A stretch of DNA of 44,244 bases from a virus (Duplodnaviria; Heunggongvirae; Uroviricota; Caudoviricetes). The position numbers and the translations under genes are program-made. Each line of letters starts with the position of its first letter. Position 1 is the stretch's first letter. The stretch lies in the IMG/VR virus record IMGVR_UViG_2896595138_000007, positions 1 through 44,244 of that record; one strand, given 5' to 3'. Positions 23,404 through 44,244 of this stretch are shown here, piece by piece. A model generated the notes under the pieces. That model saw nothing but the letters and a program-made list of their open reading frames with translations. It was not told the DNA's origin and made no database searches.

Positions 23404-23549
23404 TCCTGCCGTCCCTGCCGGATCTCAGATAAGTTTTCCATGGTCATCTGCTGACCATTAAAGGTGACGGATTTTCCGTCCAGCACCGCCATTTCAGCTT
23501 CCGTATAACGCTGAATCATGGCTTCGATATCATTCTGGTTCATAACCAT
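23331..23549 (-). CDS. W: Head-tail connector protein (gpW-like)
   Basis: 72 aa between terminase and portal; C-terminus RRRGHPGYRLARF resembles lambda W. Confidence 0.6.
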   Translation of the reverse strand: MVMNQNDIEAMIQRYTEAEMAVLDGKSVTFNGQQMTMENLSEIRQGRQEWERRLAALITRRRGHPGYRLARF

Positions 23550-25650
23550 CCTCCGGAAGTCAGCCAGGGGTTAACATCGTCAGTTACTGTTTTCTTCCGT
23601 TTTTGTTTTTTAACAGGCGTGGATACCGGTTCCGGTGTGGGTGACGGTTCGGTACTGTCCGGGACACACTCCAGCCAGGTTTCCCGGCTCGCCCACTCCG
23701 GTGCATCCGGCCAGCGGATCTTTTCGTATCCATGCAGAATGACCAGAGCCTCGGCATACACCATCAGGTCAAAAGCTTCGTTGGCACCGCGACCCGGCTT
23801 ACTCCATTTCCCGTCACTGCACCGCTCTTCATACGTCAGTTCGTCGTAAAACCAGCTCCCCAGCCAGTCAGGGAAATGCACATAGCCGGGACCTGGCGAG
23901 TCACGCCATAACGCGTTATTCACCCGGTCTTTCAGGGCATCCGTCTGAAGAAGCCAGAGCGGCACATCACCTGCGGCCTGCGCCCGTCGGCCCGTTCGTC
24001 CGGTGTTATCAGGGAATGTACGGGTGATCAGTTTTGCGCGCCGGATGCTGTCGCCCTTAAACAGGTAAATACGTTTACCAAGTCCATCACGACGGCAACG
24101 ACGCCAGAATTTATAGGCATTATCAGTGACCCCGTCCTCACCGCCGGAGTCCACCGCCATTGCCATCAGTCGCATTTGTTGAGAAGGATCGGAGGCCAGC
24201 GGCCAGCTTTTATGAAAAACATCCGTCAGCAGGACATCCCAGTCTTCCGGATAGCTGGCCGGATCAATTCGCTGGCTCTCCCCGTCGCTGTCACCGCGCA
24301 ATGACTGCGTGATGTTGTAACGATCAATAATCCAGCGTTCGCCACGGCTGCCATAGCCCGTTACCTGAACCACAAAACGGCGATGACGTCCCGCCTGCAC
24401 ATCCACTGTCGCCACAAGGAAATTAACGCCATCCGGCACACTGCGGGAAGGAACTGGCTCTGCCCGCTGCTCAAGCCGTTCACTTTTTCGTTGCTCCATG
24501 CTGGCACGGGGAAGATAAGGTAATCCCCAGTCGGTATTGATAACCGTCTTGAGTGTTTCTTCACTTCCGGTTGTCTCGTATTCCTGTTCTGCAGTAAGCA
24601 GTTTGTAAACGAGTTGCGAGAGTGTCTGGTAAGCAGCTGCCGGACCCTCCATCCAGAATGACGCAATACGTGAGCGTCGGGGATCACCATAACGACTGCC
24701 ATCCGCATTGATGGATTCACCATCCCGCAACCAGACCCCACGTCCGTTCAGCTCACGTTTTTGTTCAGGCATAATCCGTCCTGAACAGGAAGGACACTGA
24801 ATATAAGCCGCCTCACTTGCCAGCACGGGATCGGCAATATCACGGAAACCAGCAACCACATCGCCGCAGGGCTGAAAATACTCACCACAGTGTGGACAGG
24901 GCCAGTACCAGCGACGGCGATCGCCACGGTTATAGAGCGACAGTATCCCCGTGGTTGGTGGAGCCTCATGCGGTGAAGTCCGTCGCCATTTCACATCCTT
25001 CACATCCCTGCCGGGGGAACTCTCCACCAGCGTCATACCACTGGACATAAATGTGGTGGTACGTTTTGAGGCAAGAGAGAAGGCATCCCCTCGCCATCAA
25101 TATCTTCCGGAAAACGGTCATAATCCGTCAGCGCCACGCATTTATAATCTGATGAGGACATGATATTGACTGACGGCCAGCCGATTTTCAGGTAGTTGCC
25201 AGCAAGGAATGTTCTGTCATAAACGTTGTTGTCATTTTTGTTCGGACTCAGGCGACTGACCACTTCCGGGCTGACGCGAAACGTTCTGGCAAGTCGTTTT
25301 TTGGAGTGTTCGCGGGCTTTTTCCTCCGTCATCTGAATGATCAGCATATCCGCAGGATCGCAAATCACGTTGTAAATCACCCAGCCGTCAATCAGGCCAA
25401 TAGTCTTGCCGGTTCGTGCCGGACCAACAAATATCACTGCGTCGTATTCACGCGAGGCCAGGCAGTTCATCGGCTCAATAACATACGGTGCCACCAGCGG
25501 ATCCCACGGGACTGAGTTCCCTGCCCCATGGGCACCCGCATATACTGAGCAACGGCATCAGCAACCCGCATTCGTCTCGGTGCGCGAAGGATATAACCTG
25601 AATCGGTTCGTGCTGCCTTTGCGGTTTCCTGATTCAGCATTACTCCTCCT
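23540..25650 (-). CDS. terL: Terminase large subunit (GpA family), two apparent 1-nt frame breaks at C/G runs (about 25088 and 25505)
   Basis: ORFs 25033..25494 and 23540..25048. Walker A VGPARTGKT; WYWPCPHCGEYFQ zinc motif as in lambda A. ATG at 25650 follows AGGAGGAGTA and opens a third frame piece. Confidence 0.85.
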
Positions 25651-26133
25651 GCTGTAATTCCTCCTCATCATCCGCACCTGCTTCAGTCACCCGCAGGGCT
25701 ATCTGATCGCGCAGATCATCAATAATGGACTGAACACGGCTCACAGCGGCAGGCTGCAGACCGCAGTCACGTTCAAGAATATCCGGTAATGTCTCCAGCA
25801 CCTGCACGACCGCTTTTGCCCAGATGGCAAACTCCCGTCTGACATCACTGGCCGGAATGAGTTGTGCCGTTTCCTGTTCGAACTTAAGACGCTCACGTTC
25901 AGACTGATACCAGGCTTTGCGCTCATGCGCGTCCATTTCGCCTTCTGCAACCGGCGGTGGTAATGCCAGAAATGCTGACACAATATCAACCACCCGATAA
26001 AGCTTGAGGTTGCTTTCATGCCCCCTGCAACGGGTAGATTTTGCAGCCTTGCCGCAGCAGTCTGGCGATGTACACCTGACAGTGCCGCCAGTTGACTGAT
26101 ATTCAGCGTCAGATTTTTTAACTCTCGATCCAT
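25640..26133 (-). CDS. terS: Terminase small subunit (Nu1-like), apparent 1-nt frame break at a G-run near 26021
   Basis: MDRELKNLTLNISQLAALSGVHRQTAAARL (HTH) in one frame, continuing ESNLKLYRVVDIVSAF... in the other; they rejoin if GGGGG is GGGGGG. Confidence 0.75.
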
Positions 26134-26302
26134 ACCCGCTCCAGAATGTTTTAAACATGCATCTTGCGAACAACTTTAGGCAAACGGTGTTAGTGGTGAA
26201 CAAAAAACAATCAAAATCGACACCATAAAAATAAAATCACCGTAATATCAATACATTACAGTAGTGGTGATGACGAATGAAATTTCAAAAACTAGCCTTT
26301 TT

Positions 26303-26330
26303 CCGCGACGCTCCCGCCCCGTGGCAGCCC
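26303..26330. other. cos-like site (cosN region)
   Basis: Minus strand reads GGGGCGGGAGCGTCGCGG...TTTTTGAAATTT, resembling the lambda cos end GGGCGGCGACCTCGCGGG...ATGAAAATTTT; located just upstream of terS. Confidence 0.4.
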
Positions 26331-26750
26331 CCCCACCGGGAGGACCCGTCAGCCAGACAGATCTGACGAACGTCTGATACAGAGCCTTGCATGAATGACA
26401 TCGGGATAATCAAAAAAGGCATAGCATCGTGCCCACAAGAATCTGTGTGAGTGTCCTGTTTCTTCCACCCCCGCACAGGACTGGCGAACATGAGGGACAA
26501 ACCCGCGAATCATTAGCGCGGTAAAAACCCGGTGTGCATCGTTTTTGATTATTCCCGCACACTCGCACAGAAGGAGTTCCCCGTCGGGCTACGGTCATGG
26601 TTAATGCGGGAATACAGCGACGATACAGCGCATGATGTGTCAGGCTTGAATACCTTTATCCGTTAAAAGGGATATCAGTTAAGTTATCCTGCGTAGGGTA
26701 TAAGCCATTGTCAAAGACACTCGACATGGAATGGGCTTTGTAATAGCAAT

Positions 26751-26770
26751 AAAAAACCGCCCGGAGGCGG
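26751..26770 (-). terminator. Rho-independent terminator downstream of the 79-aa moron
   Basis: Minus strand has GCCGCC-tccg-GGCGG hairpin followed by TTTTTTATT. Confidence 0.55.
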
Positions 26771-26810
26771 CATTTCAAGTGTGACGTATGTTAGATCAAA
26801 AACTTAAATA

Positions 26811-27050
26811 CTAACTGTCGAATTTGTTTCGTAACTCCGGCGACAGTGACGACCACCAGTTTATCGCTTCAAGTGCTTCTTTCTCTATATATTTTTTTTT
26901 ATAGAATGCTTGCAATTGAGGTAGCACATTATCATGTGAGAATGCCTCTGAAATTTTGAAGTCTGCACCTAAGTGCATCGCTCCCATTTTCAATACCTTG
27001 AGATACCCATGGATTTCAGCATGTTTTTCAAAATCATCTAATATATTCAT
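26811..27050 (-). CDS. Hypothetical 79-aa moron protein between the lysis cassette and cos
   Basis: AT-rich ORF with AAGGA ribosome-binding site and its own downstream terminator; no recognisable domain. Confidence 0.5.
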   Translation of the reverse strand: MNILDDFEKHAEIHGYLKVLKMGAMHLGADFKISEAFSHDNVLPQLQAFYKKKYIEKEALEAINWWSSLSPELRNKFDS

Positions 27051-27076
27051 TTCTTCATCCTTTAGTGAGAACGCTC

Positions 27077-27111
27077 AACATACAACATACAACATACTAC
27101 ATACTACATAA
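27077..27111. repeat. Tandem heptamer repeat (AACATAC)x3 (TACATAC)x2
   Basis: Five consecutive 7-bp units read directly from the sequence, between the Rz stop and the start of the 79-aa ORF. Confidence 0.85.
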
Positions 27112-27595
27112 TGCACTGGGTGACGATATAGTTCTGCAGATAACTAATCTGTTTAGTCACTGTGACGATTCGCTCTCTAAGGGTGAAATAATCCCGTTCA
27201 GCGGAGTCATTAAGTCGGGGGCTGGTAACATCGCCCAAGCTGCCGGTGCTGGTCGCTCCATTCGCGGGACATCTGGCGTTGAAGTGCAGCCCACACTTGC
27301 CAGTGCGAACACAACGCTGCAAATCATCAAGCTGCTTTTTAGCATCAGCTAAGTCCTTCGTGTATTTGGCATCCAGAGCCGCTACATCACGCTGGCGGAT
27401 CTGCATGTCTTTGATGGTGGCGTTCGCCAGTTTCAGTTCTCTGGTGTTTTTGTCGCGCTGCTCTTTGTAAGTCATGGCGTTATCACGGTAATGATTAGCA
27501 GCCCATGACAGGCAGACGATGATGCAGATAACCAGAGCGGAGATAATCGCGGTTAATCTGCTCATTTCTGCCCCACAAACAGACTTCATGCTCAA
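27104..27595 (-). CDS. Rz: i-spanin Rz
   Basis: [30 protein letters not shown] is an N-terminal transmembrane anchor followed by a coiled-coil region; downstream of the endolysin. Confidence 0.85.
27157..27345 (-). CDS. Rz1: o-spanin Rz1 lipoprotein, embedded in Rz in another frame
   Basis: 62 aa, lipobox-like ...LASVGC, proline-rich, fully inside Rz. Confidence 0.7.
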
Positions 27596-27916
27596 TCTCC
27601 CGACGAGTCATCAGTCCTTTCCATTGCTTACCGCCAGCGTATGTCCAGCGACGTAGCTGATCACACGCACCTTTGATATCGTCCCGGTTGATTTTGCGAA
27701 GAAGCGTCGATGTTCTGAAATTTCCAGCACCCACGTTGTAAACGAACGAGTAAAGAGCGCCGCGCGTTGTTTCCGGTATATCGACTTTGATGTACGGGTT
27801 AATTTGTCTGGCGACCGTGGCAAGGTCTTTATTCAGGAGGGCTTTGCATTCTGCTTCAGTATACGTTTTACCTAGCATGATGTCTTTTCCGGTGTGTCCG
27901 TAACATACAGTCCATA
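27495..27916 (-). pseudogene. Endolysin (lysozyme, RrrD-like), 3' fragment separated from its 5' part by an IS3-family element
   Basis: ...[34 protein letters not shown]...; the 48-aa N-terminus lies on the other side of the IS. Confidence 0.85.
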
Positions 27917-27962
27917 CACTGAGGTATACTGGCAATAGCGGACACTACCATTTGTTCTTTTT

Positions 27963-28781
27963 TTAAGCAGCCATCTGATGATATTTTTCCCTGAAGGCTG
28001 CCGGGGAGATATTCCCCAGACGAGAGTGACGACGCTGACGATTGTAGAAAATCTCAATGTATTCCCGTATTACTGAGATGGCTTCATCCCGGTTATTAAA
28101 ACGATAGTGGCTCAGGCTCTCATTTTTCAGCGTTCCCCAGAAGCTTTCCATCGGAGCGTTGTCGTAACAGTTACCTTTACGCGACATTGATGTTTTCAGA
28201 CCAAACTGCTCCTGTATGACCCGGTAATCGTATGCGCAGTACTGTGAACCTCGATCAGAGTGGTGGATTAGCCCGGCAGGTGGGCGCTGGCTCCTGAGCG
28301 CCATAAACAGGGCTTTACCTGTCAGCTCTTTTGTCATGCGCTCTCCCATGGCGTAGCCGACAATTTCGCACGTATAAACATCTTTGATGCCAGCGAGGTA
28401 CAACCATCCCTCCTGTGTGGCAACATACGTCAGGTCCGCCACCCAGACCTGATTTGGTGCTGTAGGAGCGAACGTCTGGTTCAGCAGATTTGGCGCAACT
28501 GGCAGATTGTGGTTCGGGTTCGTAGTCGCTCTGAACTTGCGTTTCTGCTTACAGCGTAGCCTTAGCTCCTTACGAAGACGTGCCAGTCGGTCACGACCAA
28601 CGATGATGCCATTCTCTGCCAGCTCCGTCTGGAGCCGCCGGGTTCCATATGTTTCGCGAGTGCGGATATGTGCCACCTTAATCTCCAGTTTTAGCCGCTC
28701 ATCACTTTGTTTTCTGTCTGAGGGTTCATGCTGTACCCGGTTGTAATAACCGCTCCTGGATACACCAAATACCTGACACAT
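27963..28781 (-). CDS. IS3-family transposase OrfB (DDE integrase domain)
   Basis: 272 aa with HSDRGSQY and GNCYDNAPMESFW motifs. Confidence 0.9.
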   Translation of the reverse strand: MCQVFGVSRSGYYNRVQHEPSDRKQSDERLKLEIKVAHIRTRETYGTRRLQTELAENGIIVGRDRLARLRKELRLRCKQKRKFRATTNPNHNLPVAPNLLNQTFAPTAPNQVWVADLTYVATQEGWLYLAGIKDVYTCEIVGYAMGERMTKELTGKALFMALRSQRPPAGLIHHSDRGSQYCAYDYRVIQEQFGLKTSMSRKGNCYDNAPMESFWGTLKNESLSHYRFNNRDEAISVIREYIEIFYNRQRRHSRLGNISPAAFREKYHQMAA

Positions 28782-28816
28782 CGCTTCAATGGGAAATTGT
28801 TGTCGCCATTGTTCGA

Positions 28817-29119
28817 TTAACGCGTATTTTTCAGCGACTCCTGTGCAAAATACGCTGTTGCTTTTTTTAATATATCTCGCTCAAGGCGAGCTTCATTTAA
28901 CGCCTTACGCAGTTGCAGAATTTCAGATTCCAGTTCAGCCACCGTGCGGGAACCAGGAGTACCGAGCCCTTTTCTGGCGGCGGTAACCCATTGTCCTAAA
29001 GTGCCTTCAGGAAGGGATAATCGGGAAGCGCCTTCACTGATCGAAAGTTGATTTTCAGGAACCGTTCTGACAGCTTCGGCTTTGAACTCTTTAGAGTAAC
29101 GTTGGGTTTTTCTGCTCAT
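28817..29119 (-). CDS. IS3-family transposase OrfA (HTH)
   Basis: 100 aa, MSRKTQRYSKEFKAEAVR...; an A7 slippery run at 28848-28854 is the expected site for -1 frameshifting into OrfB. Confidence 0.9.
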   Translation of the reverse strand: MSRKTQRYSKEFKAEAVRTVPENQLSISEGASRLSLPEGTLGQWVTAARKGLGTPGSRTVAELESEILQLRKALNEARLERDILKKATAYFAQESLKNTR

Positions 29120-43020: not shown

Positions 43021-44244
43021 TCAGTTTGAATCAGAGATAGTACAATTAACAATCGATTCAACCCTCTTCCACCATGCCAGGTAAGCTTTACGCTGTTCTT
43101 CTAGATAATCGCTCTTATCATAAACTTGCCATACCCCTGGCAGCTTATGACCAAGCATAATTTCTGCGATATGAGGCGCAGTAAGATCAGAAAAATTTGT
43201 TCGTGCTGTCCGTCTCAAGTCATGAAGAGACCAATGAGGGAATTGATATCCTAAACGCCGCCACGCGTACTGCATTAAATTGTAAGGCAGCGACTGTAAT
43301 GATGTCCTACCGACTGGCTCCCTGCTTCCTTCCTTAGTAAAAAGCATATCGGAACCGTTGTTCATAGAGATAACGTATTTTATAAGCTCTTCAACCGGTT
43401 CAATAATGGGCCGCTTTAGCGGTTCGCCTGTTATGTCCCCTGTCTTATGTCGTTCAGGTGGTACAGTCCATACCTTATTTATGAAATCAAAATCACCCAC
43501 CCTAGCAGTAATTAGCTCCGAACTACGGCAACCAAAATGCAGTAATAGTTTAATGAAGGCCCGGTATTTGGGAACCATTCTAGAGCCATCGATCGCAGCA
43601 TAAAGAATTTTAATTTCATCGTGTGTCAGAAACCGTTTCTTCTGACCTTTACGGATATCCATATCTTTACCCGTGATATCCGACAGCGGGCGAGTTTCAA
43701 TAAGCTTTCTCTTATACGCCCAGACATGGGCCTGCTTTGCGTTAATTAGCAATCGGTCTGCTATTGCTGGAGTCTTAGTGCTAAGAGGCTCCAGGACTTC
43801 TAACCAATCATGCAATGTAGCTGCATCGTGAGGGATATTCCCGATTTTAGAGAACAGGTGCAGCTCAAACGAGCGGAGTATCTGTTCAGAACCCTTTTTA
43901 TTTTTTACACAATATGCTTCATACCAGGCACGGATCACAGACTCTACCGTCATGGCTTCAGTAGCTTTTCGTTTTTCAGCCTGCTTGACCAATCGTGGAT
44001 TACGGTTTGACTCGAGTTCACCACGGAGACGGATAACTTCTTCTCTGGCCTCTTTTAATCCAGTTGCCGGGTAAGTTCCGATATCAAGACGCTCACCTTT
44101 CCCTGCCCATTGATAACGATATTGGAACACTACGCGACCTTTCGGTGATACTCTGACAGACAGACCATCACGATCGGATTTAACCAAAACCTTATCACGT
44201 TCCTTTCCAACGACTGAACGCAACCACGCATCAGACAGCGCCAT
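43021..44244 (-). CDS. int: Tyrosine integrase (P4-type, with N-terminal arm-binding domain)
   Basis: 407 aa; catalytic HDLRRT and LGH...Y motifs near the C-terminus; start codon is the last three bases of the window. Confidence 0.9.
   Translation of the reverse strand: MALSDAWLRSVVGKERDKVLVKSDRDGLSVRVSPKGRVVFQYRYQWAGKGERLDIGTYPATGLKEAREEVIRLRGELESNRNPRLVKQAEKRKATEAMTVESVIRAWYEAYCVKNKKGSEQILRSFELHLFSKIGNIPHDAATLHDWLEVLEPLSTKTPAIADRLLINAKQAHVWAYKRKLIETRPLSDITGKDMDIRKGQKKRFLTHDEIKILYAAIDGSRMVPKYRAFIKLLLHFGCRSSELITARVGDFDFINKVWTVPPERHKTGDITGEPLKRPIIEPVEELIKYVISMNNGSDMLFTKEGSREPVGRTSLQSLPYNLMQYAWRRLGYQFPHWSLHDLRRTARTNFSDLTAPHIAEIMLGHKLPGVWQVYDKSDYLEEQRKAYLAWWKRVESIVNCTISDSN

Follow-up and report, generated by a model that had tools for sequence, protein, structure and literature searches.

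Lambda and DLP12 carry bor in the slot between Rz and cos. This gene, which has its own promoter and lies on the strand opposite to Rz, is the classic moron of that slot. Short-unit VNTRs of Escherichia coli and Shigella are neutral and are used for MLVA typing; repeat-driven phase variation is rare in these organisms and, to our knowledge, has not been described for prophage cargo.

Bor is an outer-membrane lipoprotein that is expressed from the repressed prophage, and the features by which phage morons are recognized include being an obvious addition that is missing from related phage genomes, possession of their own promoter and their own terminator, and expression from a repressed prophage (PMC3594210). 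In Haemophilus influenzae, hmw1A and hmw2A carry an (ATCTTTC)n array of at least 11 units in the 5′ untranslated region, where it forms a long hairpin with a G-rich arm cleaved by RNase III and has a proven inverse effect on expression (PMC12721329). Runs of nine A or T are recognized as hypermutable sequences prone to transcriptional and replication slippage (Baranov et al. 2005, PMC1088944).

Here, we analyze ORF79, a small gene in a 44,244-nucleotide stretch of tailed-phage DNA (IMG/VR record IMGVR_UViG_2896595138_000007; hereafter, the window). It is a cargo gene of the lambdoid Rz–cos slot with a real microsatellite in its leader, and no new mechanism is demonstrated. Like lambda bor and DLP12 borD, it occupies the slot after Rz/Rz1, is present or absent among related phages, and deviates in composition; unlike them, it has no signal peptide or lipobox, lies on the Rz strand, and has no detectable promoter. 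Its leader resembles those of hmw1A and hmw2A in that a tandem 7-nt unit, probably transcribed, precedes the start codon and is polymorphic in copy number through slippage, but the array comprises only 2–5 units and has no predicted structure. As with MLVA VNTRs, the short-unit array outpaces point mutations and splits otherwise identical strains, although this one is tied to a rare prophage cassette. Finally, ORF79 shares with described A9/T9 slippage sites an in-frame A9 in coding sequence, and frameshifted A8 and A7 alleles occur naturally, but no longer alternative product is evident.

Results

ORF79 encodes 79 amino acids from an ATG start and lies on the minus strand at 26811–27050. Pfam assignments give the gene order P21-type holin, phage lysozyme, Rz, ORF79, DUF1441 TerS, and GpA-type TerL, which places the Rz i-spanin gene (PF03245, E = 1.6e-39; 27104–27595, minus strand) upstream of ORF79 and the terminase genes downstream; an integrase is found at the far end of the window (43021–44244). 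A Shine-Dalgarno sequence, AAGGA (27058–27062, minus strand), stands 7 nt 5′ of the ORF79 start codon, and the slot is closed by an intrinsic terminator (26750–26771, minus strand). A first-pass annotation had described this region as a self-contained, AT-rich moron comprising a 79-residue ORF with its own ribosome-binding site, a strong terminator, and five tandem heptamers immediately upstream. The ORF, ribosome-binding site, terminator, and heptamers are all present at the positions it gave; the strand was missing from that description, as was the overlap of the Rz stop codon with the first repeat unit.

The lambda-like prophage that carries ORF79 is now defective, as its packaging genes (23540–26203) are broken. 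TerL is split in two (23540–25048 and 25033–25494), and TerS undergoes a frame change between 25741–26133 and 25640–26203. Within the lysis cassette, an IS3-family insertion sequence occupies 27963–29119 (orfA, HTH_Tnp_1; orfB, rve) and the lysozyme ORF (27495–27935) begins only at position 16 of the Pfam profile; thus, the endolysin is disrupted. ORF79 is intact although the endolysin, TerS, and TerL of the same prophage are all broken. The window is identical to CP026845.1 (GCA_002950375.1) across 3240 nt, and its IS content, along with the name given to one cluster member, hints at a Shigella origin. Elsewhere in the window, the top Tandem Repeats Finder score belongs to a 15-nt tandem repeat (CAGATTTTGACGCGT; 4.3 copies at 35632–35695) that falls inside an HTH_36 ORF (35063–36004) and probably represents origin iterons within a replication-initiator gene.

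ORF79 is part of a swap-in cassette of ∼367 bp and 37% GC on the minus strand (26759–27125), the bounds of which mark where homology to cassette-free phages and prophages ends. This homology stops at ∼26758 and restarts only at 27125, so that the final 21 nt of Rz are cassette-specific. Megablast of window positions 26600–27300 against 5426 complete E. coli genomes recovered the cassette in 25 genomes and its flanks (query positions 1–159 and 526–701) in 2509. A BLAST search with the same interval found the whole cassette in none of 50,697 phage records, and a search of species-representative genomes gave no match. The cassette is an addition that related genomes lack, and its gene is AT-rich as first described, with 37% GC for ORF79 against 51% for the whole window. 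ORF79 is dispensable for lysis and packaging, given that over 99% of the prophages sharing its flanks lack it.

Other phages hold other cargo at the same position and on the same strand, namely a DUF2513 gene in E. coli ECCWS199 (L040), a 50-aa ORF in phage Ayreon, and KilA-N plus an HK620p39-like gene in Stx2 phage 1717. Like ORF79, each immediately follows Rz and precedes either the shared terminator or the conserved sequence flanking it; the encoded proteins are unrelated to ORF79. The heptamer array was not seen at the L040 junction, the only junction with non-ORF79 cargo that was read. The earlier proposal of an add-on cargo gene in a variable Rz–cos slot is thus upheld and, judging from these alignments, cargo is exchanged between the 3′ end of Rz and a resident terminator.

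This terminator lies 3′ of ORF79 and reads GCCGCC-TCCG-GGCGGT from 26771 to 26756 on the minus strand (stem GCCGCC/GGCGGT, loop TCCG), followed by T6 down to 26750. Nearly the same terminator plus TTTTTATTGC is found after unrelated cargo or distant homologues in L040, L022, L036, L013, and Ayreon. In L040, AACCGCCTACGGGCGGTTTTTTATTG is located 3′ of the DUF2513 gene (about 1024–1050), and in L022, AACCGCCTCCGGGCGGTTTTTTATTGCC is located 3′ of a different gene pair (5516–5543). The terminator stems in L036 (about 1519–1543) and L013 are the same as that of the window; the stem in Ayreon differs, and homology picks up again at TTTTTATTGCCATTAC. As the same terminator follows unrelated cargo genes, it is a resident feature of the slot: the strong terminator attributed to ORF79 does exist, but it is probably not the gene's own. 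The motif CCGCC-TNCG-GGCGG-T6-ATTG ends the post-Rz slot regardless of cargo and is ∼100% identical where the neighboring coding sequence has diverged to saturation, and it looks like a recombination joint between modules.

Every ORF79 homologue is located directly 3′ of one or more spanin genes, on the same strand, and 5′ of a terminase. The adjoining lysis modules are of four types in all, among them PF03245 Rz, DUF2570 with LysC, and DUF2514, and the terminases are DUF1441 with GpA, Terminase_2 with Terminase_3, or a third type. A conserved partner gene was rejected, since the neighbors differ in every context. The phages of L011 and L016 use spanins other than the lambda-type Rz, yet immediately upstream of their homologues the 3′ end of a lambda-type Rz survives as non-coding remnants of ∼150 nt (about 2120–2255) and ∼80 nt (about 4920–4975), respectively. 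ORF79 therefore arose at, and moved with, the Rz junction.

The ORF79 protein has a mass of 9.2 kDa, a pI of 6.0, and a net charge of about −2 by residue count. Its N-terminus (MNILDDFEKH) is acidic and without a hydrophobic leader, and inspection of the sequence revealed no signal peptide, lipobox, or membrane segment. AlphaFold2 models a five- to six-helix bundle (pLDDT of 80.5 with 4 sequences and 82.7 with 13 sequences), and a small, soluble, all-alpha protein is predicted. A HMMER scan of 1.84 billion representatives returned seven relatives of 77–86 aa, and a collection of 5.8 billion proteins contained 12 clusters at 90% identity. The family is represented in E. coli/Shigella, Citrobacter, Hafnia, and Serratia, with every member labeled 'hypothetical'. 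Residues Leu17, Leu20, Ser34, Ala62, Trp65, Trp66, and Leu69 are invariant. Pairwise dN/dS values among the homologues range from 0.12 to 0.49 (dS up to about 2), establishing ORF79 as a real gene under purifying selection. Among the 23 intact close alleles, all seven polymorphic sites (codons 2, 14, 15, 18, 18, 53, and 79) are non-synonymous and none is synonymous, although seven sites are too few for significance.

A short, AT-rich ORF without a known domain could be suspected of being spurious, and the differences in repeat copy number described below of being assembly errors. We give this reading practically no credence, as dN/dS is well below 1, full-length homologues of 77–86 aa occur in four genera, the AlphaFold2 fold is confident, and the common repeat alleles recur in independent assemblies; the homologue and allele comparisons refute it.

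ORF79 has no match in Pfam (E up to 10), NCBIfam, or PADLOC, and a Foldseek search of the model against PDB and BFVD returned nothing below E = 0.9. The best PDB sequence-profile match (E = 0.076) was discarded as noise. A single weak PHROGs match (phrog_8207, E = 0.0055) was not accepted as membership, as only 1 of 11 family members matched it. The protein therefore remains without a recognizable domain, as the first-pass annotation had it. Membership in the lambda Bor family was also rejected, given the empty Pfam search and the absence of a lipobox or hydrophobic leader. By these searches, the family is new to annotation and forms a small orphan prophage family of Enterobacterales. Our best guess is that ORF79 is an accessory factor that binds a partner and is produced late in infection, perhaps serving counter-defence or exclusion.

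The predicted fold bears a weak resemblance to the core-binding (SAM-like) domain of tyrosine recombinases. An hhalign comparison of the family with the integrase of the window paired ORF79 residues 33–69 with integrase residues 359–395 (I.E..H..LP...Y.K..Y.E..A..WW) at 22% identity and a probability of 1%. This short alignment over the WW motif falls in the catalytic C-terminus of the integrase, not in its core-binding domain, and was rejected; it is probably due to chance.

The Shine-Dalgarno sequence that the first-pass annotation assigned to ORF79 is retained in L011, L013, L016, and L036. No sigma-70 promoter matching at least 9 of 12 positions was found on either strand across 26300–27700, at a threshold that gives about two chance matches per 1.4 kb. 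Among the modeled alleles, the best match spanning the array is TCGTCA-N17-TATGTT (8/12), which occurs only in the two-unit allele, and each extra unit shifts the two halves a further 7 bp apart. With nothing above 8/12 in any allele, a promoter made or tuned by the repeat was rejected. The description of the locus as self-contained consequently does not hold: neither the window scan nor any repeat allele yields a sigma-70 promoter, and the terminator belongs to the slot. No terminator was found between Rz and ORF79. Because the gene has its own ribosome-binding site but no promoter was found, ORF79 is most likely transcribed by readthrough from S-R-Rz and would then be the final gene in the lysis segment of the late operon.

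The RNA of the leader shows nothing unusual in structure (z = −0.09), no hairpin is predicted, and Rfam gave no real match. The predicted unpaired probability of the region from the Shine-Dalgarno sequence to the AUG is 0.66 with two units and 0.45–0.54 with three to five, a small and non-monotonic change. A sequence TATGTT(G/C)A (27076–27082 in the window), located 26–30 nt 5′ of the ATG, is kept in L011, L013, L016, and L036, and it persists in the L036 homologue, which is 55% identical and saturated at synonymous sites. It could be a weak −10 element that consensus scans score poorly, or just reflect the ancestry of the junction.

If TATGTT, for example, did serve as a −10 element, then ORF79 might be a moron in the full sense, expressed by its own promoter from the repressed prophage and of benefit to the lysogen like bor. 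The gene is AT-rich, horizontally swapped, and followed by a terminator; it has stayed intact beside a broken endolysin and broken terminase genes, and TATGTT is retained among homologues. In L020 and L022, distant homologues also follow intergenic regions of 200–400 nt with promoter-like matches of 9–10/12. However, these counts are no higher than in shuffled sequence, and a consistent −35 element is absent from every homologue. ORF79 itself has no match of 9/12 or better (an atypical promoter could escape such consensus scans), and it lies on the Rz strand only 32–53 nt after Rz. We regard this interpretation as unlikely and favor transcription from the late operon.

Most of the spacer between the Rz stop codon and the ORF79 ribosome-binding site is filled by the heptamer array. 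Tandem Repeats Finder delimits it at 27076–27110 (period 7, 5.0 copies, score 56) on the minus strand. In the gene sense, it reads TATGTAG TATGTAG TATGTTG TATGTTG TATGTTG, or (TATGTAG)2(TATGTTG)3, with all five units perfect, in agreement with the five heptamers first reported. It is the sole array of at least three copies with a period of 5–9 in the 44-kb window, which places it far beyond chance. The last Met codon and the stop codon of Rz (ATG TAG, 27109–27104; TAG at 27104–27106) fall within the first unit. An in-frame TGA follows the array, which is therefore not translated as part of ORF79.

Comparison of copy number across related prophages, which the first-pass annotation had suggested, revealed recurrent variation. 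Across 28 loci drawn from complete genomes, NCBI drafts, IMG/VR, and metagenomes, the array takes the form (TATGTAG)a(TATGTTG)b, where a+b is 1+1, 2+1, 3+1, 2+2, or 2+3, corresponding to 2–5 units. The 1+1, 2+1, and 3+1 alleles each recur in several independent assemblies (complete genomes, IMG/VR contigs, metagenomes); the 2+2 and 2+3 alleles are each known from a single record. When haplotypes were defined by identity over 400 nt on each side of the array (800 nt in total), haplotypes 0 and 1 were each found with both 3+1 and 2+1 arrays, and haplotype 2 with 1+1, 2+2, and 2+3. This amounts to at least 5–6 independent array changes against 0 flanking substitutions, with both unit types expanding, and the alleles are well mixed in the population. 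By this comparison, the array is a true hypermutable microsatellite. A literature search turned up no paper that lists this repeat as a VNTR, and none that cites RefSeq accessions for the protein.

Diverged homologues carry a two-unit form (L013), a degenerate pair (L011 and L016), or a single TATGTT (L036), which indicates that a two-unit proto-repeat at the Rz stop codon is ancestral. The comparison supports growth of the array from an ancestral TATGTAG TATGTTG overlapping that codon, presumably by replication slippage. An iteron-like binding array for a regulator, possibly ORF79 itself in view of the faint likeness of its predicted fold to the DNA-binding core-binding domain of tyrosine recombinases, would account poorly for this history, as copy number is not conserved and the array dwindles to one unit in L036 and to degenerate pairs in L011 and L016. 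Moreover, a 7-bp period sets successive sites on different faces of the helix, ORF79 is slightly acidic, the Foldseek searches were empty, and the integrase profile comparison gave a 1% probability. We consider such a role very improbable.

A second slippery tract lies within ORF79. The in-frame A9 at 26892–26900 (minus strand; T9 on the plus strand), which covers codons 51–53 (KKK), is the only homopolymer run of at least nine in the window. At the 25 close loci, the A9 allele is found 15 times and an A8T allele (K53N, in frame) eight times. An A8 allele with a −1 frameshift and a 54-aa product (L003) and an A7 allele with a −2 frameshift (L007) are each found once. Truncated alleles occur in 2 of 25 complete genomes. 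Among public contigs, three truncated 54-aa cluster members in 14 contigs stand against more than 1000 contigs with intact forms (roughly 1%), and some truncated alleles may be homopolymer sequencing errors. The 54- and 59-aa forms look like simple loss of function, and the rarity of off alleles, together with possible sequencing errors, argues for ordinary decay.

The two tracts together invite an interpretation as a contingency locus, in which the heptamers tune ORF79 by altering the length or structure of the leader or the spacing of a promoter, and slippage at A9 switches the protein, generating heterogeneous lysogens. A hypervariable repeat does lie beside a gene, with five alleles at 28 loci on haplotypes identical over 800 nt, and the A9 run varies too. 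Copy number has changed recurrently on identical haplotypes, frameshifted A8 and A7 alleles and 54-aa forms exist, and the window has no A9 run or heptamer array other than those at ORF79. The weak TCGTCA-N17-TATGTT match is confined to the two-unit allele, with its spacing growing 7 bp per unit, and hmw1A sets a precedent in which a 7-nt repeat precedes the start codon and is transcribed (PMC12721329). Against these points, the arrays have only 2–5 units, whereas those of hmw have at least 11 (PMC12721329), the leader has no predicted hairpin, and the 8/12 promoter match lies under a threshold that already admits chance matches. In addition, truncated alleles are rare and in part perhaps erroneous, and an independent Shine-Dalgarno sequence is held at a fixed distance 3′ of the array. 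On balance, we doubt that the locus works in this way.

Discussion

We consider it probable that ORF79 is a late-operon cargo gene of a defective lambda-like prophage, and that the array in its untranslated leader arose by slippage and is nearly neutral. The slot terminator would halt polymerase that is not antiterminated before it enters cos and the terminase genes. The array would do no more than lengthen the untranslated spacer (32 to 53 nt) that separates the Rz stop codon from the ORF79 start; most likely it is neutral, with at most a weak influence on how ORF79 is translated. Near-neutrality is suggested by the lack of a promoter and of RNA structure, by the small and non-monotonic change in accessibility from the Shine-Dalgarno sequence to the AUG, and by the fact that the conditions of the hmw system do not apply.

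Some observations run counter to the late-cargo reading. Two of the tracts most prone to slippage in the 44 kb, the heptamers and the sole A9 run, are polymorphic and sit at one 240-nt gene, which gives it the look of a contingency locus; TATGTT(G/C)A is conserved; and the polymorphic sites are non-synonymous without exception. The strongest version of this alternative would make ORF79 a true contingency gene of E. coli/Shigella prophages, in which the array would set the amount of protein and A9 would turn it on or off, yielding mixed lysogen populations for a new small protein that acts in phage–host or phage–phage conflict. We judge this version to be distinctly improbable.

Even if both tracts are neutral, the heptamer array evolves fast enough to serve as a marker for telling apart prophages that are otherwise identical, and the precise swap-in slot between the 3′ end of Rz and the conserved terminator could be searched for further accessory genes. 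The orphan family founded by ORF79 is small and clean (77–86 aa, with an invariant WW motif) and is open to experiment. Should either tract prove to control ORF79, it would represent a new way for prophages to diversify lysogens, and ORF79, if a contingency gene, would be the first phage cargo gene of Enterobacteriaceae described as varying in phase through a repeat.
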